A stretch of DNA of 35,822 nt, taken from sequence record SRR22947725_3976; one strand, written 5' to 3'. The notes beneath the pieces were generated by a model. That model saw only the letters and a program-made list of their open reading frames with translations, had not been told where the DNA came from and made no database searches. Of this stretch, positions 8,939 through 27,098 are shown piece by piece; the stretch's first letter is position 1, and the number at the start of each line of letters is the position of its first letter. Position numbers and translations under genes: made by a program.

Positions 8939-11900
8939 ATGAGAATAATAGAATTTAAATTATCTAAAACTCTAACAATCTTTTATCTATTCTTATCCCT
9001 ATTATTCTCTAACATGGCCTTAAGTTCAGAAAAAAATACTAATTATATTAATGAATTAAACACTATTGAATCTTATTATTGGATTGCACTAGAAGAAAAA
9101 GGTAACCACAAACTTTTTTCAAAAGCTTTAAACAAACTTAATGCTTTAGAAAATAAAATTAAAAAAATTACACCTGCAAGTAGTATTCTTCTTAAAATTA
9201 GAGGTTTAAAGGAAGATATTAGACAACAATTAGATATGTCTTCTGATACTTTTTTTGGTATTTTCCCCCTCTCAAGATTTTTTAATAATAACTTTCTTAC
9301 AAATTCTATTGCTTTTGGAACATATGAGTTATTTGACGATTATAATGTGATGTCATCTAATCAAGGTGTCGAAAATTTGTTAAAAACCTTGAAAGAAAAA
9401 GAAAGAAAACAATTAGACGTTATATTTATATCAAACCCTCTTGATTACGCATTAGAGAATGAAGCTTTATACCTTTTTAATCAAAGCCCTCAATTTTTTG
9501 TTCATAACCAAAAAGAAGTAAACGATGCCTTTGTTAAAAATAACTTAAATGAAAACGATATTTCTGACTTTAAATCAGGAAATTTAAATGAAAAGCATTT
9601 GCAATCATTTTTTAAATCTTTTGATACAAACGATCTACTTTTAGTTAATATTGAAAAAAATTCTTCTTTTTTAAAAGATGCTTTTTATGTAATAAAAGGG
9701 TCATATTTCAAGCCTGATCAATTAAAACCGATTAAAATTTATAGAAATATGGGTTTTTCCAGAGATAGGACTAACTTATTAAATCCTATAATATTGTTAA
9801 ATTTTTCATTCTTACTTGTTGCTATCATTCTCGGTTTCATACTATATCGCAAAAAGACAAATTATAACCCAGATAAAAACTTACAATTTCTATCTATTTT
9901 ATCATTAAGTTTCATCATATCTAGATTGTCTCCATATATTGTTATACCTGGTTTAAATTCTATTATTTCAATGCCACCACCAGAAACCTTGGCAATTTTA
10001 AGTTTTTGGTATGTAATAATCATATCCATAATTTTTTTATTCTTACCATTTATTTTTATACATGGACTAAAATTAAAATTTAAAAAATCTGACTATTTTC
10101 AATTGATTTTTAGTAACTCGGGAATAATTGGTATCGTTTTTTCTTTTGGTATAATTTCTTGGTTTATCACTTCGTTTGTCATTTACGAAGGCAGTTTTCA
10201 AAATGCTACTCAGTTTATAATTCCGATTATTATTTTTTCACTAAACTTCTATGAATTTGGGAAAAATATAGATAAATCAGAAATAAAATTTTCAACTTAT
10301 TTTATTGTATTGTTAAGTATTTTATTTTTTATGAGCCTTGTTTCATTAAATTATACATACATTTACATCACATCTTTTTTATTACTAGTTAATTATGCCC
10401 TATCAAAGTTAATGTTTAATAAAAACCAAAGTTCATTTCCATCAAACAAAACAAATAATAAATTAATTAAATGGATACACCCTCATTTAAAGAAAGAAAA
10501 CTTATTAGAAATTAAAAAAACTACTGGGATAAAATTTACTTTTTTAAAAACTATAGATGAAACAAGTGGAAGATTATTAATTAAACAATCTTTAAAAGAC
10601 AATTTCTTGTTTGTAGAGATTGAATGCCACAATGAAAATTCATCTTTTGATTTAATCAATCAACTACTTGAAAAAAAATTTGATGGTACAACTAATCAGT
10701 CTATAGAAGATACAATAGATAGCATTACTAATTTTATACCATTTAGTAGTTTATTAAACATGGCAGTAAACCAATCAAATCAAGAAACCTCCTTGGATCA
10801 TGTACTTGAGGCGGCTAGTTTAGAATTTTTTGATAAACTTAATAACCAAAAGAATGTTTGTATATTAATATCTGGTTTAAATTATTTAGATAAAGAGAGT
10901 TTCAAGTGGTTACGCCAAATTAAAAATTATAATACCAACCTAAATATTAATTTTATTTTTATAGGAACTAAATTATTATCAAACGTAAATTTTAATAATA
11001 CTCTTACACTTGATGATTTGGTCCCTGAAGATTTAATTAATTTCTTGAAACAGGAACTAAATTCTGACCCTATCCTAGCTGAAAAAATAATAGAATATTT
11101 AAATGAAACAGACGATAAAACCACTTTAAACGATATAGAGCTTATTTTTCAAAACTTAAAAAGAAGTAATTCAATTTATTTAGATACTAAATGGCATCTA
11201 GATATAAATAAAAAAATTGAAGATAATATTTTGAAAGATGAAATGATTTCATTAGAAAATACTATAACTGAAAGTTTACAAAACTTTCCTGAATATAAAA
11301 CTTTTCTTATTATATCAGCATGTTTAGGTTATCAATTTAATTTAAAAGTTCTGTCAAATGCTACTGGTTTAAGCTTAATTGAAACAGCTAAAACTATTGA
11401 AGATATAAGTATAAAAACTGGAATAATAGAAAACACTCCTAACGCAAATAATAAAATTAAATTTAGAAATAGGTCTACCTTAGTGACCTTGAATAGTATT
11501 TTTTCTTTAAATGAGACATTAGATAATATTCCTTTAATTCAAAGAACATGTTGTTTTAACGCTGCCATTGCTATTAAAAATTATCACAAAGGATATTCTA
11601 ATGAAAATCAACGAATATTTAATTTATTTGAAAAAAGTGGAACTAATAATTTAACATACACCTTAGATGCTGGTTTAAAGTTAAGTTCAAATTTATGTGT
11701 TTTAAACCAATTTGATAAAGCAAACATAATTATTGAAAAATGTTTGAATTATTTAAAACATTATAATTCAGTAAATAAAAATGATCTTTTTAATCAATTG
11801 TTAATTGAGAAATATTTTATTGAGTTAGAAAAATCGTTTTATAACGGTACAATGATTGAAAAAGAATATCTGTCCAATATTGCCGAAAAATGGCTTGAAT

Positions 11901-12757
11901 ATCGTAATTATAAAAACAAATTAATTTATCCTATTATGCGAACACTTTATAACCTAAGAGATTATAAAGATCTTAAAAGTTTTATTGAAATTGTAAAAAA
12001 AGACCCTGAATTAGATAAGTGGTTAGTGTGTGACATAGAGCATTATACTGCGCTCATTGAAATTCAATTTCATAAAAAATTGGATAAAGGTAAATTATTA
12101 CTATCAAAATGTATAAAGAGTTTATTAAATGAAAATGACAATCAATTTTTATCCGTAAAATCTAGAGTATTTACTACATTCGCTAATCATTTTTCTAGTG
12201 ATAAAAATTCAAAATATTATATTAATGAATCAATTGAAATCAAAAAACAATTAAGTGACAAACCAGGACTAGCAAGATCTTACGGATCCTTATCAAGACT
12301 ATTATTTACTGAGAACCCCATATCTAACGAAACTTTAGAAGCTACTAAACAATGGTTTATAATTAATGAAGAAAACAAAGATATTTTTGGTATAATTTTT
12401 TCTAGAAACTTTTTAGGAAAAATATATTTTAATATTTATAAAACTAATCAATCTAAAAACGATAATTTAAAGAATAGCAAACAACAATTTAATGAAAATA
12501 TCAAACTACTTAACAATAAAATTGATCAGGGAAGTCAAATTCAAATCTTTACGTCATTTGCAGATTTGATGGAAATAGCTAAATTTGAAAAAGATGAAAA
12601 TACGTTTTTAGACTTATCAAGTAAGTTATATAATCTACTTAATAATTTTGAAAAAATAGAAAATAAATTCTTTATAGATATTTTTAAAAATGCTTTTAGT
12701 TCAAAGTTTAAAAATGCGGTTTACTCAAAACAAAATATTAAAGAAATTTTAAGTTAA
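8939..12757 (+). CDS. Large multi-TM protein with degenerate STAND/AAA-like domain, winged helix and TPR-like C-terminus
   Basis: Signal peptide, about 250-aa extracytoplasmic region, about 7 TM helices. Then eroded STAND motifs: KTIDETSGRLLI at the Walker A position, ILISGLNYLDKES at the Walker B position, SACLGYQFNLKVL and IKFRN. TPR-like helices follow (KKQLSDKPGLARSYGSL). Confidence 0.7.
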   Translation: MRIIEFKLSKTLTIFYLFLSLLFSNMALSSEKNTNYINELNTIESYYWIALEEKGNHKLFSKALNKLNALENKIKKITPASSILLKIRGLKEDIRQQLDMSSDTFFGIFPLSRFFNNNFLTNSIAFGTYELFDDYNVMSSNQGVENLLKTLKEKERKQLDVIFISNPLDYALENEALYLFNQSPQFFVHNQKEVNDAFVKNNLNENDISDFKSGNLNEKHLQSFFKSFDTNDLLLVNIEKNSSFLKDAFYVIKGSYFKPDQLKPIKIYRNMGFSRDRTNLLNPIILLNFSFLLVAIILGFILYRKKTNYNPDKNLQFLSILSLSFIISRLSPYIVIPGLNSIISMPPPETLAILSFWYVIIISIIFLFLPFIFIHGLKLKFKKSDYFQLIFSNSGIIGIVFSFGIISWFITSFVIYEGSFQNATQFIIPIIIFSLNFYEFGKNIDKSEIKFSTYFIVLLSILFFMSLVSLNYTYIYITSFLLLVNYALSKLMFNKNQSSFPSNKTNNKLIKWIHPHLKKENLLEIKKTTGIKFTFLKTIDETSGRLLIKQSLKDNFLFVEIECHNENSSFDLINQLLEKKFDGTTNQSIEDTIDSITNFIPFSSLLNMAVNQSNQETSLDHVLEAASLEFFDKLNNQKNVCILISGLNYLDKESFKWLRQIKNYNTNLNINFIFIGTKLLSNVNFNNTLTLDDLVPEDLINFLKQELNSDPILAEKIIEYLNETDDKTTLNDIELIFQNLKRSNSIYLDTKWHLDINKKIEDNILKDEMISLENTITESLQNFPEYKTFLIISACLGYQFNLKVLSNATGLSLIETAKTIEDISIKTGIIENTPNANNKIKFRNRSTLVTLNSIFSLNETLDNIPLIQRTCCFNAAIAIKNYHKGYSNENQRIFNLFEKSGTNNLTYTLDAGLKLSSNLCVLNQFDKANIIIEKCLNYLKHYNSVNKNDLFNQLLIEKYFIELEKSFYNGTMIEKEYLSNIAEKWLEYRNYKNKLIYPIMRTLYNLRDYKDLKSFIEIVKKDPELDKWLVCDIEHYTALIEIQFHKKLDKGKLLLSKCIKSLLNENDNQFLSVKSRVFTTFANHFSSDKNSKYYINESIEIKKQLSDKPGLARSYGSLSRLLFTENPISNETLEATKQWFIINEENKDIFGIIFSRNFLGKIYFNIYKTNQSKNDNLKNSKQQFNENIKLLNNKIDQGSQIQIFTSFADLMEIAKFEKDENTFLDLSSKLYNLLNNFEKIENKFFIDIFKNAFSSKFKNAVYSKQNIKEILS

Positions 12758-12768
12758 ATATTTTTATT

Positions 12769-13167
12769 ATGAACAAAACAAATGAAATTATTCTTTATGC
12801 ATTCAGAGGACTTCCTGGATCTGGTAAAACTACTTTTGCAAAATCACTTAATTTAAAATTCTTTGAAGCAGATCAATATTTTGAAAAATTTAATGATAAT
12901 AAATATGATTTTAAATTACTAAAAAAAGCACATCAATATTGTTATCAATCTGTAAAAGAAGAATTAGAAAATGGAAAATCAGTGATAGTTAGCAACACAA
13001 TGACATCTCAAAAAGAAGTTAAGGAATATCAAGATTTAGCTAAAAAATTAAATGTAAAGTTTGTATCTTTAATTTTAGAAAACAGACACAACGGTAAGTC
13101 AATTCATGACGTGCCTATTTCTTCAATTCAACGCATGAAAGAGAGATTTGATATAAAACTTAATTAG
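12769..13167 (+). CDS. Small P-loop kinase (AAA_33 / polynucleotide-kinase-like)
   Basis: RGLPGSGKTT Walker A, EADQYF, VIVSNT and ENRH..SIHDVP...MKERF; 11 nt downstream of the 1272-aa gene. Confidence 0.85.
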   Translation: MNKTNEIILYAFRGLPGSGKTTFAKSLNLKFFEADQYFEKFNDNKYDFKLLKKAHQYCYQSVKEELENGKSVIVSNTMTSQKEVKEYQDLAKKLNVKFVSLILENRHNGKSIHDVPISSIQRMKERFDIKLN

Positions 13168-13351: not shown

Positions 13352-16300
13352 TTAGGCAGAAAGATTTTTAATTTCTAATTCAACTTTTTCCATTTCTTCT
13401 TTTTGACCATTGTTTTGATAAAGATCAAGTAAACGATTAAGACTTGAAATCAGTGGTTTTTTAAAATCTTCATCACCATCATTATATAGTTTCCTTCGGA
13501 TATTAATACTTTCAAGAAAAGCTTCACGTGCTTTGTCAAATAAACCCTTTTGTGAATATGTAGTTCCTAATGCTGTTAACACAGAAGATACATCTCCAGA
13601 ATTGTTTTCTTTTCGTCGTATAAGAAGAACTTCTTCCAACAATTTTAACGCTTTTTCTATTTCTTTAGTATTATTTCTTAAAAAAACAGCATAATTCTGT
13701 TTTGTTCTTAAAGTTTCCTCATGTTCATTCCCATGTAAACTTTGAGTGGATTTTAGTAATCTATTATATAATAAATCAGCCTGCTTATAATCTTCTTTAT
13801 CTTCTAAAAAATCGATGAAATTATCTAATTCTTCTAAAGTATCTTCATGCTCAGACCCATAAATATTTTTACAAATTTCTAATGAATTTCTGAAATAAAT
13901 TTCAGCTTTTTCATGTTTTTCATAATTCAAGTATAAATATGCTAAATTACTCGTCACTACCTGGGTGTTACTATGATTTAATCCATAAACTTCTTCATGT
14001 CTTTCTAAGGCTAAAAGATAAAATTTTTCTGCTTCATCATATTTATTTATTTGAGATAACGTGTATGCAAGTGAATTTAAACTATTAAGAGTATCTTTAT
14101 GATTTAAACCTAAATGTTTTTCTCTCAGTTCAAATAATTGTCTTATGTAAAGCTCAGCTTCTTCATATTTTTCGTGTTTATCCAAGAAAAGATTTAAAAA
14201 TTTTAATGCTATTAAATACCTTGGATGGTTTATTCCAAGTTGAATTTCTCTTCCTTTTAGAGCTTTCCTGTATAATTCCTCTGTTTCTTCAACATTTATA
14301 TTTTGCTCATCAAGACAAGATGCTAAATTTAACATTGATGTAAAAGTTTTTGTATCATTAGGGCCATTAACTTTTAATCTTCCTTCTAATGATCTTCTAA
14401 GATATAATTCAGCCTCTTTATATTTATTTAAACCTTGTAATGCTAAACTCAAATTGTTCAAGCAAGTAAATACGGTAGTATGATCTTTACCATTTAATCG
14501 CTCTCTTCTAGGAAGCACTTCGCGAAAAATATTCTCTGACTCAACGTATTTATCTTGATTTAGAAGACAAACCCCAAGTTGATTTAATATAGCCAAAACC
14601 TCATGAGTAACTTGGTCATCTGAATTTTCTTTATAAATTATAAGTAATTCTCGATAAATTTTTTCTGCTTCTACATGATTTTTATCAAAATCTAGTAGAT
14701 TTGCAAAATAACTTAGAACTCTCAAAGTATCTTCATGTTGTTCTCCTTTAATAAATTTAAAAATATCAGTAATTTTTTTTGCGAAGTTTAAGGCAGTTAG
14801 ATACCAACCTGAAACAGCACATAATTGTAAAAACTCCTCTAATATATCTAAGTGTTTTTCTTTTAACTCTCTTTCCATATATTCATTTACAGCCTCTATG
14901 TAGACTTTTCCTTGATCATCATCTCCTATTTTAAGCCAGTATTGCAGTATATCTAAATTTTGTTTTCCAAGATTAAACATTTTACCTAGATACTCTAAAT
15001 CAAGCAGTTTCTCTCGTGCATCGTCAACTTGATTATTGCTTAGTAGATGGTCTACACCAGTTCTATATAAGTAATTGGATATAGATTTTTCATCATCAGG
15101 GCTCATAGCCGCTTTCGCAAAAGCCTTCCTTGCCTGTTCAACTGGATAACTCATTGTTTCAGTTGTTAGAATATGTTCCCTTAGAGATAGATGGTGCAAC
15201 ATGTACCCATCTTCTCCTTCAGGATCCGGTGCACGTCTTAACATACTTGCTATGGCAGCGAGGCCTTTTACAACTAGTTTATCTCCTGCCTCACCGTTAG
15301 GTATTCTATCTCTCAGTCTTAAAAACGTTATTATTTCTTGTTCAGCCAAGGGCTCATTTGCCATTGCTAGTGTGGCCACAAGAGGCGTTAATAGTTCTTT
15401 TAAGGCACCAACACCTAATCCTTCAATAAGCTTTTCATGGTAAGCTGTAAGTCCTTTTGGAAGATTGGCTGTCCCGTCCAGTGGATAGTTACCCTGTTGT
15501 ACATCTTGGGTCACATAATTTACAAAGAGTGGTAGTCCCTCAGCTCTTTTCGCCACAAGATCTATGAATGGATTGACTACTTCATCACCTTTTTCTTTAT
15601 CTCCTGCAAGAAGCTTGTTCCTAAACAAGCCAATACGTTCCAATAACATACTTCTTATATCTTGAGTTTGCATGGCTGGAAGACCATCAGGATAAGGGTT
15701 AATAACTCGAGAGTTACTAAACGCTTTTACAAGTTCTTGTTCAGGACGACCTGAGCAAACCCATGTCACTCTCAGAGTATTTAAGTTCAAAGGTATCTCT
15801 TCAGCAAAGCTAGCGTCTCTCGCAAGCAGTTCATCTAATCCATCTAGAACAAAGACGACCTTCTTATCTTTATTAAGATAATCCAGGCAGGACTTAAGAC
15901 GATCTTCTGCTTTGCCTTTTTCGTCTACCTTAACATTATCGATCAAGGCTTCCATTGCCACTAGTCGCTCAACAGCAAAGGTTGCAAAGGCGTCTCTATT
16001 ACAGCGTGCGTCATCTCCAGATTTAAATCTATAAGGAAGGATGATCTTGTTTTCATCTTTATTATTATCAATAAGATTTTGGGCTAAACGTGCCACTAAA
16101 AACGACTTACCTATTCCAGCTGGGCCTGTAATCCAGACTATCCCCTGCTCTATATCTTTAAAGCTATTTTCTATATGCTCTTGTTCTTCTAAGCGCCCTA
16201 CCATTTGATTGGCATCTTTTTGGATCTCTCGTCCAAAGTCCTGTATCTTAAAGGCTTTTTCTGAAGCTTTTTGATTGGCACGTTTTAAACTAAATAAAGA

Positions 16301-17353
16301 TTGGAAGGCTTCTACAGCAGACACACCTGCTTCGGAGTGGCTAAAGCCTTCTGCGCCTAGAGGCGTAAATTGAAGTTGGACAACGTCTTTGCGAACATAT
16401 ATTTGAGTTGAGTTTACATCTCCTGTATCAACATTTCCTTTTGCATCTGATACTGAAGGATAGCCAAACAATGCCATAGGCCAAAGAGATAAAGTGTTTT
16501 TATCTCTTACAAGCCACACTCCGTCACTGTCACCTTCAAACTGTGATACATCTAAAGTAGGTGCCGCCGTTAGATTGTCTGATGTTCCTTTAAGTTCCAT
16601 AGGAACAGTCTCATCAAGGCCGACGATATTAATATCTGATAACCAACTTAAAGATTCAATCGTCTTTTCAAAAGGTTCCTGCCAAATTCCAATTAAACGC
16701 TCAGCTTCTTTTCTAGTTAATCCTCCTCCATGTGCAAGACGATTACGAAGTTTGAGGAATGAGGTGTCGGCTGTGCCCGGATTGTCTGGCCCATAGAGTA
16801 ATGTTTTTAAGGTTTCATTTACATACTTATCTATCTCAGGAAGCATAAGTGTCTGTTTACTTTTAGTTTGTGCAAGAGATATCGCCATAGATAGCCACGC
16901 ACCTAGCGTAGGCATTTCAATTTTACCCCAGAGCTCTTTTAATAGTTTATCATCTAATTCGCCATGTTGCCTTCTATCAGCTGCACCTATAATAACCAAG
17001 AACTTAAGTAAGAGTTCAATAGCATCACAGGCCGCCCAAAGTTTCATGCCAGGATGGTCTTCTTCAGCGTATTCATGAAGCGGTATGGCTATAACTTGAG
17101 GAAGATCTCTAATAAAATTAGAAAAAGAACTGGATGATTTGTTGGCGTCAGAAGTTGTTGATACATCATTTGAAGAAGCATCATTATTAAGAGAAGCGAT
17201 GGCAGCAAGAAGCTTTTTACGGTGCGGAGTAAGAACTCCTAATTCTTTGAGATCATCGTCGGTAAATTCAACTAAGTCTTCTAAAGGAAATTCTGAAAGC
17301 GTATCAGCATAACGCGATAAGCCTATTTCTTCTAATAAATATATTATATCCAT
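13352..17353 (-). CDS. NLR-like STAND protein: SAM domain, RxxxxH (HEPN-like) region, NACHT/AAA NTPase, TPR repeats
   Basis: SAM: LEEIGLSRY...TDDDLKELGV..PHRKKLLAAI. LRNRLAHG at 16730-16747. Walker A GPAGIGKS at 16103-16126. Walker B VFVLDGLDEL. AEGLPLFV (GxP). Kinesin-light-chain-type repeats of about 42 aa (G.xH.xT...LNNL...EAE..Y). Confidence 0.88.
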   Translation of the reverse strand: MDIIYLLEEIGLSRYADTLSEFPLEDLVEFTDDDLKELGVLTPHRKKLLAAIASLNNDASSNDVSTTSDANKSSSSFSNFIRDLPQVIAIPLHEYAEEDHPGMKLWAACDAIELLLKFLVIIGAADRRQHGELDDKLLKELWGKIEMPTLGAWLSMAISLAQTKSKQTLMLPEIDKYVNETLKTLLYGPDNPGTADTSFLKLRNRLAHGGGLTRKEAERLIGIWQEPFEKTIESLSWLSDINIVGLDETVPMELKGTSDNLTAAPTLDVSQFEGDSDGVWLVRDKNTLSLWPMALFGYPSVSDAKGNVDTGDVNSTQIYVRKDVVQLQFTPLGAEGFSHSEAGVSAVEAFQSLFSLKRANQKASEKAFKIQDFGREIQKDANQMVGRLEEQEHIENSFKDIEQGIVWITGPAGIGKSFLVARLAQNLIDNNKDENKIILPYRFKSGDDARCNRDAFATFAVERLVAMEALIDNVKVDEKGKAEDRLKSCLDYLNKDKKVVFVLDGLDELLARDASFAEEIPLNLNTLRVTWVCSGRPEQELVKAFSNSRVINPYPDGLPAMQTQDIRSMLLERIGLFRNKLLAGDKEKGDEVVNPFIDLVAKRAEGLPLFVNYVTQDVQQGNYPLDGTANLPKGLTAYHEKLIEGLGVGALKELLTPLVATLAMANEPLAEQEIITFLRLRDRIPNGEAGDKLVVKGLAAIASMLRRAPDPEGEDGYMLHHLSLREHILTTETMSYPVEQARKAFAKAAMSPDDEKSISNYLYRTGVDHLLSNNQVDDAREKLLDLEYLGKMFNLGKQNLDILQYWLKIGDDDQGKVYIEAVNEYMERELKEKHLDILEEFLQLCAVSGWYLTALNFAKKITDIFKFIKGEQHEDTLRVLSYFANLLDFDKNHVEAEKIYRELLIIYKENSDDQVTHEVLAILNQLGVCLLNQDKYVESENIFREVLPRRERLNGKDHTTVFTCLNNLSLALQGLNKYKEAELYLRRSLEGRLKVNGPNDTKTFTSMLNLASCLDEQNINVEETEELYRKALKGREIQLGINHPRYLIALKFLNLFLDKHEKYEEAELYIRQLFELREKHLGLNHKDTLNSLNSLAYTLSQINKYDEAEKFYLLALERHEEVYGLNHSNTQVVTSNLAYLYLNYEKHEKAEIYFRNSLEICKNIYGSEHEDTLEELDNFIDFLEDKEDYKQADLLYNRLLKSTQSLHGNEHEETLRTKQNYAVFLRNNTKEIEKALKLLEEVLLIRRKENNSGDVSSVLTALGTTYSQKGLFDKAREAFLESINIRRKLYNDGDEDFKKPLISSLNRLLDLYQNNGQKEEMEKVELEIKNLSA

Positions 17354-24515: not shown

Positions 24516-27098
24516 TTAGTTAAAATTTACTATTACTCTATCTTTATCACCTTGTAGTTCAGGTGTTTGTGAGCCTGATGATTGTTGAACAACATTTTGT
24601 TTTACGTATATGTGGAGTTCTCTTGCAGTAATCTTATTGTCAGCATTTGTATCTGCATCACCTTCCATGCCCTTCATAAGGAAGTATGAGAACATACCAT
24701 GTTTTGCTTCTTCTAGTGGCCTTGATATCTGCTCATTTGATGCTGCACTAAAGAGTGTAAATCCATCTGGTATAGCTTGTTCTTTTGCTATAATTCCAAC
24801 AGGTCTTCCAGTCACCAGAACCTCTTCACTACGTGTTTCACCGGAGTAGCAAGTGTCTAGGAAGACTGTTACGGATTTAGGATTAGCTTCCTTAATATCA
24901 GAGAAGAGTTCGTCACGTAAAATGGCAGTCTTCTCAAGCAGTCTAGGTGAGCCGTCGTGAGGAAGAAGGTACATATTTTTACCATCTTGAGATGCTAGAC
25001 CATGTCCTGCAAAAAATACGTATATATCAGACTTGTTAGGTTTAGCTGAACGTCTTAGCCATTCTTGTACAGATAATAATATATCTCTTTCATCTGCTCC
25101 ATCATTCAGGAGTATCTTTATTTTATTTTTAGATATGCCTAATTTCTCAGTGGCATAATCTTTAAATACCATTGCATCATTATCTGCGTACAAAGCTTTG
25201 GCTTTTGTATTTTCATAATTAGAAACACCCACTATTAAAGCTAGAGCATCTTCATTTTTCTTAACTCTTTTATTTAGTGGGTTTAAGCTTTTAAATGATA
25301 TGGAGCTATCACTAACCATTCTATTAGCTTTTAACTTTATAATCTTTGAAGTAGTTAAACCTGCAATGTCAGTCACTTCTACTTTTAGTTCTTTACCCTT
25401 TGGTGGAACGTAGGTAGAGAAATTAAAGTTCCCATTTAAGGATAATAACACTGGTTTTCCATCTACAGTAACTTCTGCTACTTCTACATTATCTTTTGCA
25501 ATACCTCTAATCATTCCTCTTTTACCAACCGTATTGTTAGCTACAATCTCAAGTATAGGAGCTCTTATATCAGCATTAATTATTTTTTCTTCGTTTTTCT
25601 GCTTATCTAATAATAAAGCTAATTTACGTTCTAGTTCAATACGTTTTTGTCTTTCTTTTTCTAGTTCTTGTCTTGAAGCATATATATCGTCAGAGGAAAT
25701 GTTTGACATCATATTAGCTATCTTTTTTTGAGTTTTATTAATTTTCTTTGCGTAAAGAAATTTATTATTTTTCCATAAACCCTCTTCTACTTTACCACTT
25801 TTATAAACATATTTTCCTTCACCTTCACGTATACCATTCTTCAAGATACCTTGATAGGTATCACCATTAAAATAAATATAAACTCCAAAACCATTAGGTT
25901 CACCGTTTAAATATTCACCAGAAAATTTCTGTCCGTTTGGCCACCCAGCTTTTCCGTATCCATGTCTTTTATTCTTAAAATATTGTCCAACATAAGTATA
26001 ACCTTTGAATTTATCGTCGCCTATATAAGTGTATTTCCCTTTTCCATGCATCATGTTTTTTTTAAATTCACCAGTATATTTATATTTTTTTGTAATGATT
26101 TCACCAAAACACATATCTTTATAACCTGATCCACACTTGGGTAGTTCGTTAAATTTTCTATTTTTATTTAGTGAAGTCGATAAAGAAGAGTTTTTAGAAA
26201 TATTCTTAGGTTTATTTGTTGTGGTAGCATACTTATAAACACCATCAGACCAGACACCTTCTTTTATATTTCCGTTTTTATATAAAAATTTTCCTTTACC
26301 ATGTAAACGTCCATTTTTAAATTTACCAATATATTTATCTCCAGAGATCCATACATATTTGCCTAAACCAGTTCTTTTATCCTTAAAGAAATCACCTTCA
26401 TATATGTCCCCATTTGCCCAAGTTAATTTTCCTGTTCCATGCATTTTACTATTCTTATAAGTCCCCTGGTAATTATCTCCATTTTTCCAAGTATATGTTC
26501 CTTTTCCCTCTCTATGACCATGGACAAAGTTACCAACATATTTATCACCAGACGTCCAGGTCATAATTCCTTTACCATGTCTTTTTCTATTTTTGAATTC
26601 ACCAATATAAGTAAATTGTTTAAATTTTTGAGTGCCGTAACAACCATACTTACCCCCCATATTAGGGCATTTGGGTAACTTGCTAATAAAACTAGCTTTG
26701 TCTTTAATTTTTCTATTTAGAGTTAAATTTCTGGTATAATAATTCTCTAATGACTTAGTACTCTCCTTCATAAAACTATCTTGTGTTATATTATCATTCG
26801 GTTTAAAATTTGAATGCTTGTATTCTTTATAGTTATAACCACAACTTAAATTACGTTTTTTACTTTCTATTAAATGAGCTTTTGAAGAATTTACACACTT
26901 GCAGAGCTCTTTATCTGAGTAATCTGCTGGATGATTTGTACAGCCAAATATTAAAACTTCTTTTCTTGTTTTTTCACCTACAATCAAGTCGTGTAAGGCC
27001 ACAAGTCCGGGGTTTTTATACATCATTCGTTGTTTTATATTTTTATTTACACATCCTGAGATGCTAATAATTATTATGAGAATAAATAATTTTATCAT
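24516..27098 (-). CDS. Lipoprotein with MORN repeats, coiled coil, Ig-like domain and caspase-family (peptidase C14) domain
   Basis: Lipobox ISGC; two blocks of Y.G.F.NG..HG.G repeats; ELEKERQKRIELE coil; GIAKDNVEVAEVTVDG; ALIVGVSNY, FFAGHG (His) and FLDTCYSG (Cys), HGMFSYFL and QTPE. Confidence 0.9.
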   Translation of the reverse strand: MIKLFILIIIISISGCVNKNIKQRMMYKNPGLVALHDLIVGEKTRKEVLIFGCTNHPADYSDKELCKCVNSSKAHLIESKKRNLSCGYNYKEYKHSNFKPNDNITQDSFMKESTKSLENYYTRNLTLNRKIKDKASFISKLPKCPNMGGKYGCYGTQKFKQFTYIGEFKNRKRHGKGIMTWTSGDKYVGNFVHGHREGKGTYTWKNGDNYQGTYKNSKMHGTGKLTWANGDIYEGDFFKDKRTGLGKYVWISGDKYIGKFKNGRLHGKGKFLYKNGNIKEGVWSDGVYKYATTTNKPKNISKNSSLSTSLNKNRKFNELPKCGSGYKDMCFGEIITKKYKYTGEFKKNMMHGKGKYTYIGDDKFKGYTYVGQYFKNKRHGYGKAGWPNGQKFSGEYLNGEPNGFGVYIYFNGDTYQGILKNGIREGEGKYVYKSGKVEEGLWKNNKFLYAKKINKTQKKIANMMSNISSDDIYASRQELEKERQKRIELERKLALLLDKQKNEEKIINADIRAPILEIVANNTVGKRGMIRGIAKDNVEVAEVTVDGKPVLLSLNGNFNFSTYVPPKGKELKVEVTDIAGLTTSKIIKLKANRMVSDSSISFKSLNPLNKRVKKNEDALALIVGVSNYENTKAKALYADNDAMVFKDYATEKLGISKNKIKILLNDGADERDILLSVQEWLRRSAKPNKSDIYVFFAGHGLASQDGKNMYLLPHDGSPRLLEKTAILRDELFSDIKEANPKSVTVFLDTCYSGETRSEEVLVTGRPVGIIAKEQAIPDGFTLFSAASNEQISRPLEEAKHGMFSYFLMKGMEGDADTNADNKITARELHIYVKQNVVQQSSGSQTPELQGDKDRVIVNFN

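Follow-up and report, generated by a model that had tools for sequence, protein, structure and literature searches.

A candidate NACHT-type immune receptor with a SAM domain, a predicted HEPN RNase and exchangeable sensors in a marine alphaproteobacterium

The 35,822-nucleotide stretch of DNA from sequence record SRR22947725_3976 (hereafter the window, meaning the whole stretch that was analysed) carries one large gene on its minus strand, and we put the probability at about 0.6 that this single gene specifies an NLR-type (nucleotide-binding, leucine-rich-repeat-type) immune receptor of the bacterial NACHT kind, with an RNase of the HEPN family as its killing part. The first 830 residues of the product form a chassis under purifying selection, and this chassis carries at least 12 unrelated sensor alleles at a single fixed joint. 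Within the chassis lies a helical domain that is very probably an HEPN RNase, its nuclease activity being predicted from the features described below. The gene is one intact open reading frame (ORF) with an ATG start and no internal stop codons, and homologues of the same length share the N-terminal start of its product (P0001, 1333 residues).

An effector, a NACHT NTPase and a repeat sensor are joined in a single protein, in the domain order of bacterial NLRs that a preliminary description of this DNA had proposed. Pfam places an N-terminal SAM domain well above threshold (SAM_1, E 4.3e-8, 33.8 bits versus a cut-off of 23; SAM_2, 29.8 bits versus 20.5), followed by an NTPase stretch beginning at about residue 384, with matches to NACHT (residues 405-519, 32.8 bits versus 26.7), NPHP3_N (38.2 versus 24.8) and AAA_16 (41.2 versus 32.6). 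The C-terminal third is occupied by tetratricopeptide repeats (TPRs), matched by TPR_12 over 8 stretches (E 1.2e-52) and by TPR_10 over 7 (E 2.7e-50). The nucleotide-binding motifs are intact, as had been claimed, and each residue examined is conserved in 187 to 202 of 189 to 202 aligned rows: K416 of the Walker A motif GPAGIGKS (residues 410-417) in 202 of 202 relatives, D504, D507 and E508 of the Walker B motif VLDGLDE (residues 502-508) in 191, 189 and 188 of 191, and both G606 and P608 of the GxP motif G606-L-P608 in 187 of 189. By these matches and motifs, the protein contains an NTPase module of the NACHT type, within the STAND class (signal transduction ATPases with numerous domains). 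The preliminary description had seen no cyclase motifs, and cyclase families were indeed absent from the best 25 of the 31 Pfam families matched. Residues 60-380 had no Pfam family in the whole-protein scan, and a scan of the protein against NCBIfam returned sub-threshold repeat and P-loop matches only.

It is in this unassigned region that we place the effector. Residues 199-210 of the translation (FLKLRNRLAHGG) contain R203-x4-H208, the motif on which the suggestion of an RNase had been based. An R-x4-H pattern by itself is frequent by chance; in an alignment of 228 rows from 215 proteins, with 11 rows gapped at the motif, all 217 remaining rows nevertheless have R203 and H208, and 214 of them N204, so that the conservation proposed as a check on the motif is borne out. 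The sole invariant columns among 46 sequences aligned down to 27% identity are R203, N204 and H208, and invariance of these residues down to about 30% identity indicates an active-site pattern. Inactive HEPN domains usually lose the catalytic motif, as far as Table 1 of PMC3710099 documents them. No part of the protein is better conserved than this domain, which is 98% identical to its counterparts in the two copies of the nearest genome (G001).

AlphaFold2 models built with the family alignment were of high confidence, with predicted local distance difference test (pLDDT) values of 92.4 for residues 70-375 and 94.5 for residues 78-245, and the longer model resolved into a helical domain (78-241), a beta-rich domain (242-335) and a short helical linker. 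When the model of residues 78-245 was compared with solved structures by VIA-align, HEPN domains ranked best, with middling Z scores of 7-9.7; over Foldseek's best 770 chains, 16 of the 19 top rows were HepT/HEPN toxins, Csm6, the sacsin HEPN domain, TM0613 or similar, although for some of these the HEPN label does not come from the entry title. The PDB entries 1wwp, 2hsb and 1o3u are classed as HEPN in PMC3710099. Profile comparison points in the same direction. We assembled RiboL-PSP-HEPN genes from 300 genomes of the phylum, using 18 of 25 loci; their motif, RNxIAHG, is close to the RNRLAHG seen here, and hhalign aligned the family profile with these 18 sequences at P 3.9e-4, with RNxxAH placed on RNxxAH. 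In an extended hhalign alignment, the conserved E113 falls on the first-helix glutamate of RiboL-PSP-HEPN. Among the 46 family members, weak matches occur to two Pfam families: HEPN_RiboL-PSP in 4 members, with a best E of 1.3e-4, and HEPN_Swt1 in 3, with a best E of 0.016. Three weak-to-moderate lines of evidence, from motif, fold and profile, thus converge, and we are fairly confident that the helical domain is an active-looking HEPN domain.

Several results weigh against this assignment. The preliminary description had called for a fold comparison, and its outcome was divided: VIA-align favoured HEPN at the middling scores given above, and Foldseek against the PDB returned no match at E <= 0.001 for either the two-domain or the HEPN-only model, its top rows being DH-PH, FERM, nuclear receptor and designed proteins with template modelling (TM) scores of about 0.1-0.2. 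The top structural match was Roquin, which we take to be a non-catalytic HEPN protein. The fragment from the window matched HEPN_RiboL-PSP over the motif region at E 0.27 and 11.6 bits (cut-off 28.4), and the hhalign probability was only 35.6%. A profile of the family alignment searched against PDB sequences gave AAA+/STAND P-loop matches, from the longer rows only, and none for the HEPN part. In the ESM Atlas, residues 78-245 matched unnamed clusters, including one SAM-bearing cluster (0.81), along with one RnlA-toxin_DBD lead (0.77).

Comparison with the nearest genome revealed how the C-terminal third of the receptor differs from the rest. G001, a single contig of 2.2 Mb, matches the window collinearly on both sides of the gene at 94-97% DNA identity, and contains two copies of the gene 9 kb apart (1196 and 1303 residues; locus L003, 8787-12377 and 17908 onward), with near-identical chassis and different TPR sensors; between them lie a 957-residue FtsK_SpoIIIE ATPase (PADLOC SspH, 1.2e-27, and mad8) and a 730-residue MORN-repeat protein. 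Against either copy, the window protein is 96% identical in the beta domain, 91% in NACHT and 92% over residues 561-760, and its SAM domain is 85% identical to those of relatives, as opposed to 31-36% for its TPR part against the G001 sensors. DNA homology between the window and G001 ends at 14858 and 14803. This pattern extends across relatives, with 88-98% identity in the chassis even where the sensors have dropped to about 30% or are not TPRs at all. Twenty-seven proteins with chassis identity of at least 81% (median 89%) fell into 12 sensor clusters at a 70% threshold, with a median identity of 33% between clusters, and anchor placement put the chassis end at residues 824-831 in 30 of 31 chassis-bearing proteins. 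Among 5.8 billion proteins, searched over the 7999 candidates sharing most words and over proteins of 733-2333 residues, the nearest relative of the window sensor is 41-42% identical and sits on the same chassis. The ratio of nonsynonymous to synonymous substitutions (dN/dS) in the chassis is about 0.09-0.10 (0.072/0.805 versus G308; 0.034/0.352 versus G001). Two species further removed within the genus, G308 and G318, have the gene at the same locus with a non-TPR sensor. We also asked whether the chassis had recently moved between the window and G001 lineages, and reject this, since chassis dS (0.35) exceeds that of the flanks (0.17-0.22).

Base composition changes at the same place. The chassis (14864-17353) has a G+C content (GC) of about 40% and the sensor (13352-14863) 27.5%, with values of 21-34% per kb outside the gene, and the sharp step within the gene coincides with the joint where homology to relatives stops. 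GC at third codon positions (GC3) is 0.26-0.32 from the HEPN domain to residue 760 and 0.22 in the SAM domain; the sensor has a value of 0.14, and genes next to the receptor have values of 0.15-0.22. First-position GC is also higher in the chassis, so part of the GC difference reflects amino-acid content; the GC3 excess suggests that the history of the chassis differs from that of the sensor. We found no meaningful tandem DNA repeats within the gene, and shuffled sequence contained promoter-like and terminator-like sites at least as often.

The receptor belongs to a family that is large but patchy across genomes. A search of residues 70-375 against 1.84 billion cluster representatives (50% identity clusters) recovered 611 proteins at E <= 0.001, of which 454 reached E <= 1e-10 and 129 reached E <= 1e-30; most of the relatives listed begin to match within roughly their first 100 residues, and complete ones mostly have a length of about 900-1900 residues. 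All named members seen are bacterial (Alphaproteobacteria, Luminiphilus and Litorivicinus). In a survey with a single-protein query, which included many incomplete genomes of the genus, the gene turned up in 3 of the 25 genomes from the genus, in none of the 16 that represent other genera of its order and in a single one of 400 further genomes from the phylum. The shared N-terminal module is followed by TPR arrays, WD40 propellers or a non-TPR region of about 540 residues that ends in a Sigma70_r4-like helix-turn-helix (HTH). Same-genus alleles (P0018, P0026, P0028 and the G318 gene at L035 9187-13308) join the same chassis to a non-TPR C-terminus, for a total of 1373-1374 residues, and the HTH of P0028 spans residues 1321-1372 (E 8.6e-6). 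A metagenomic relative, P0056 (1517 residues), has a GmrSD_C (HNH-type) nuclease domain after its TPRs (residues 1358-1493, E 1.8e-17), and would therefore carry predicted nuclease domains at both ends. The beta-rich domain accompanies the HEPN domain throughout the family and has conserved residues L290, P292, Y319 and R321; the ESM Atlas gave no usable match for residues 242-378.

A SAM domain lies upstream in 106 of the 203 fetched members with a complete module N-terminus, and the SAM_1 match among relatives reaches E 9.5e-16. In three genomes of the genus, SAM_1 matches are confined to these receptor genes, which makes recruitment of a separate SAM-bearing partner unlikely and self-association the simpler explanation. 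The SAM domain is therefore most likely a homotypic self-association module, by which the protein may polymerise, and it could let paralogues with different sensors co-assemble. RNA binding of the Smaug/Vts1 type is a conceivable alternative role. Among PDB sequences, BICC1 (E 1.1e-4) and ANKS6 (E 0.0072) supply the SAM domains closest to it, a resemblance that is no evidence for polymerisation. The preliminary description had also stated that a SAM domain in Alphaproteobacteria usually precedes a cyclase. Of the 301 alphaproteobacterial genomes sampled, 30 had SAM_1 matches, for the most part within ORFs of some 1100 residues, and all four loci scanned (12 were fetched) encode SAM - Guanylate_cyc - AAA_16, in agreement with that statement. 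In one alphaproteobacterial genome, G584, SAM_1 matches 19 times, chiefly within ORFs of about 1100-1460 residues, in what looks like an expansion of large SAM-bearing proteins; the four scanned loci come from other genomes.

Table 1. Features of the receptor gene and of neighbouring genes in the window (aa, amino-acid residues)
Feature	Position	Strand	Basis or remark
Whole gene P0001, SAM / HEPN-like / beta domain / NACHT / TPR, 1333 aa	13352..17353	-	
SAM domain, aa 2-55	17189..17350	-	Pfam SAM_1
Ser/Asn-rich linker, aa 56-77	17123..17188	-	low-complexity; weakly conserved in alignment
Helical HEPN-like domain, 164 aa, aa 78-241	16631..17122	-	AlphaFold2 model
R203-N-R-L-A-H208, predicted HEPN catalytic motif	16730..16747	-	family conservation and hhalign to RiboL-PSP-HEPN
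Beta-rich domain, aa 242-335	16349..16630	-	nine high-confidence strands in the aa 70-375 model
Helical linker preceding the NTPase, aa 336-380	16214..16348	-	two modelled helices
NACHT domain, aa 381-560, including Walker A/B	15674..16213	-	Pfam NACHT, NPHP3_N, AAA_16
Post-NTPase helical/winged-helix STAND part, aa 561-830	14864..15673	-	GxP at aa 606-608; chassis end
TPR sensor array, aa 831-1333, hypervariable	13352..14863	-	TPR_12 and TPR_10 matches
1272-aa ORF	8939..12757	+	no Pfam or PADLOC match
132-aa AAA_33 kinase-like ORF	12769..13167	+	
449-aa ORF	17437..18786	+	no Pfam or PADLOC match
432-aa TPR protein	18904..20202	-	
516-aa TPR and trypsin-like protease	20207..21757	+	
860-aa MORN-repeat and caspase protein	24516..27098	-	Peptidase_C14

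The surroundings of the gene (Table 1) include the MORN-caspase and TPR-trypsin proteins and, in G001, the FtsK/SspH-like ATPase, which are conflict-type neighbours and support the immune-receptor reading. The TPR and TPR-trypsin genes, together with a 301-residue ORF and an LPP20 gene (about 18.8-23.8 kb), had no DNA match in the stretches of G318 and G308 compared. The 449-residue ORF is divergent from the receptor gene, at a distance of 84 bp; it adjoins one of the G001 copies, is present in G318 (473 residues) and has no DNA match in the G308 stretch. Its occurrence beside only one of the two G001 copies, and the lack of a match in G308, led us to reject it as an obligate partner. The 1272- and 132-residue ORFs form a pair that flanks the receptor convergently in all of the window, G001, G308 and G318. 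PADLOC matches in the window were at the level of domains only (the caspase model and the protease part of RT-Protease_XI), and no tRNA was found in the window.

By analogy with bacterial NACHT and Avs proteins and with HEPN RNases, we can postulate how such a receptor may work. The TPR array would keep the protein off until a foreign (phage) protein was bound, and binding would then trigger nucleotide-dependent oligomerisation of the NACHT modules. Minimal HEPN RNases are activated as dimers, with a composite site, and oligomerisation here would pair two HEPN domains, so that their R-x4-H motifs could form a composite, metal-independent RNase site. Cleavage of RNA would halt translation and abort the infection, and the SAM domain would probably add homotypic self-association that raises cooperativity. 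It is conceivable, as a tentative extension that we regard as doubtful, that the SAM-HEPN-NACHT chassis serves in marine bacteria as a shared platform with interchangeable sensor cassettes, a population repertoire in which the common SAM domain lets differing receptors, such as the G001 paralogues, co-assemble into a higher-order RNase complex.

We infer antiphage function, RNase activity and oligomerisation alike, and there are objections to the receptor reading beyond those raised against the HEPN assignment. PADLOC-DB 2.0.0 (library dated 2023) has no model for the protein: its Avs profiles do not match, and its only matches are weak ones on the P-loop stretch at residues 395-499 (mad8, 2.2e-5; Cas3, 0.0019 and 0.0052). 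No known defence system was recognised by PADLOC flanking the gene in the window. The same machine might therefore serve an end other than phage defence: it could act on plasmids and further mobile elements, in kin discrimination, in a stress response, or in programmed cell death together with the caspase- and trypsin-like neighbours, all of which lie, with the TPR gene, within 10 kb; locus content varies among members of the genus, and any conflict island would fit. We find this unlikely, since phage protection is what tested bacterial NACHT proteins confer (in the accessible text of Kibby et al., bioRxiv 2022.07.19.500537) and the recognition of fast-evolving viral proteins would lead one to expect hypervariable repeat sensors on an otherwise constant chassis. 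Moreover, the receptor gene forms a transcription unit by itself, beside neighbours that differ from genome to genome.

A second kind of doubt concerns the effector itself. If the helical domain were a non-nuclease HEPN-like fold with an RNA-binding, ligand-binding or structural role, as in the top match Roquin, the protein would be a STAND signalling or regulatory ATPase, and the HTH on same-genus alleles is a point against the receptor reading in that a regulator role would also fit them. The invariance of the catalytic residues, the usual loss of the motif in inactive HEPN domains and the standing of this domain as the most conserved part of the protein all speak for an active nuclease instead, and no DNA-binding domain is among the Pfam matches of the window allele; we consider the regulatory alternative improbable. 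The SAM domain, the NPHP3-type NACHT and the kinesin-light-chain-type TPRs are all typical of eukaryotes, and eukaryotic too are the best PDB sequence matches, to kinesin light chain TPRs and the BICC1 and ANKS6 SAM domains; together with a chassis of 40% GC in a 27% GC genome and its raised GC3, this could suggest a eukaryote-like protein gained by horizontal transfer and interacting with a eukaryotic host or grazer. Such an origin is very improbable given that the named relatives are bacterial, that the 611 clusters mostly share the bacterial architecture, that SAM-effector-STAND proteins are native to Alphaproteobacteria, and that neither a secretion signal nor a secretion system was seen nearby. 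An HEPN-armed receptor of the bacterial NACHT type remains our preferred reading.

HEPN-armed bacterial NLRs have been predicted since 2013, and our literature searches found no tested example. The family described here offers a clean study case, with an invariant catalytic motif, an intact switch and natural sensor swaps on a constant chassis, which supply specificity mutants ready-made. To judge from the nearest genome, the host belongs to a marine alphaproteobacterial lineage of low GC whose genome measures about 2.2 Mb, and few phage-defence systems are known from streamlined plankton; the locus may therefore inform phage defence in such organisms. A bacterial SAM domain placed before an RNase-STAND-TPR protein also bears on the adoption of SAM domains by eukaryotic SAMD9/9L and SARM1. 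If the shared, co-assembling platform were confirmed, it would be a bacterial counterpart to the SAM-driven STAND assembly of SARM1 and SAMD9/9L, contrary to what the available portion of PMC12680541 suggests.

The preliminary description did not recognise this domain combination as a named defence system. The lack of a PADLOC model bears this out; the novelty of the combination was overstated, since HEPN-STAND-TPR, HEPN-NACHT and SAM-effector-STAND precedents exist. Fusions of HEPN with a STAND ATPase and TPRs (and S1) were listed in Table 1 of PMC3710099 (Anantharaman et al. 2013), with Npun_F6454, MED222_16016 and Desac_1927 as examples, and were likewise predicted to be conflict or defence RNases. 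Compared by description only, those fusions are filed with the Swt1-like HEPN domains, with a SAM or beta domain unmentioned in the available part of the source, whereas the family here leans, by weak Pfam matches, to RiboL-PSP-HEPN (4 of 46 members) as much as to Swt1 (3 of 46). HEPN is also named among the N-terminal effectors of bacterial NACHT proteins in the accessible text of Kibby et al. (bioRxiv 2022.07.19.500537), which describes the same effector-NACHT-repeat layout, TPR sensors included. Those proteins resemble the receptor here in being encoded by single genes and need Walker A for their function, and no HEPN-bearing member is described as tested in that text. Closely related NACHT modules there tend to share sensors and to vary in their effectors; the pattern here is the reverse, with effector and NACHT constant and the sensors swapped. 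Avs/AVAST proteins follow the same logic, with a nuclease effector, a STAND NTPase and a TPR-type sensor.

Full-text literature searches returned no description of a SAM, STAND/NACHT and HEPN combination, and the supplementary tables of Kibby et al. and of PMC13581612 may list the clade; the latter, a 2026 survey of STAND proteins, mentions HEPN, in the part available, only on a non-STAND protein. PMC7159879 was rejected as a precedent, its 'SAM domain' being radical SAM. SAMD9/9L starts, like the receptor here, with a SAM domain followed by an RNase, which is AlbA_2 in SAMD9/9L as opposed to an HEPN RNase with a NACHT-type NTPase here; Legrand et al. 2025 (PMC12680541) deal with SAMD9/9L together with the bacterial Avs9. 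In the accessible text of that paper, the SAM domain at the N-terminus of the SAMD9/9L layout is said to be seemingly confined to eukaryotes, and the family described here is a bacterial SAM-RNase-STAND-TPR layout, reached with parts other than those of SAMD9/9L. The alphaproteobacterial SAM-cyclase-AAA_16 proteins, at about 1100 residues, have the same order of SAM, enzyme and STAND-type ATPase, but with a cyclase as effector and with AAA_16 only, NACHT being unlisted at E <= 1e-4. This arrangement is common in Alphaproteobacteria, suggesting that the family is the same design with HEPN and the beta domain in the effector slot. HepT/MNT, Csm6, RiboL-PSP-HEPN and AbiD/F-like proteins share the helical core and the R-[N]-x3-H motif; unlike these minimal RNases, the HEPN domain here is larger (164 residues, about seven helices), is fused to a beta domain and a STAND switch, and has no antitoxin or CARF partner. 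What is new here is the HEPN module in the effector slot, the extra beta domain and the pattern of sensor swapping.

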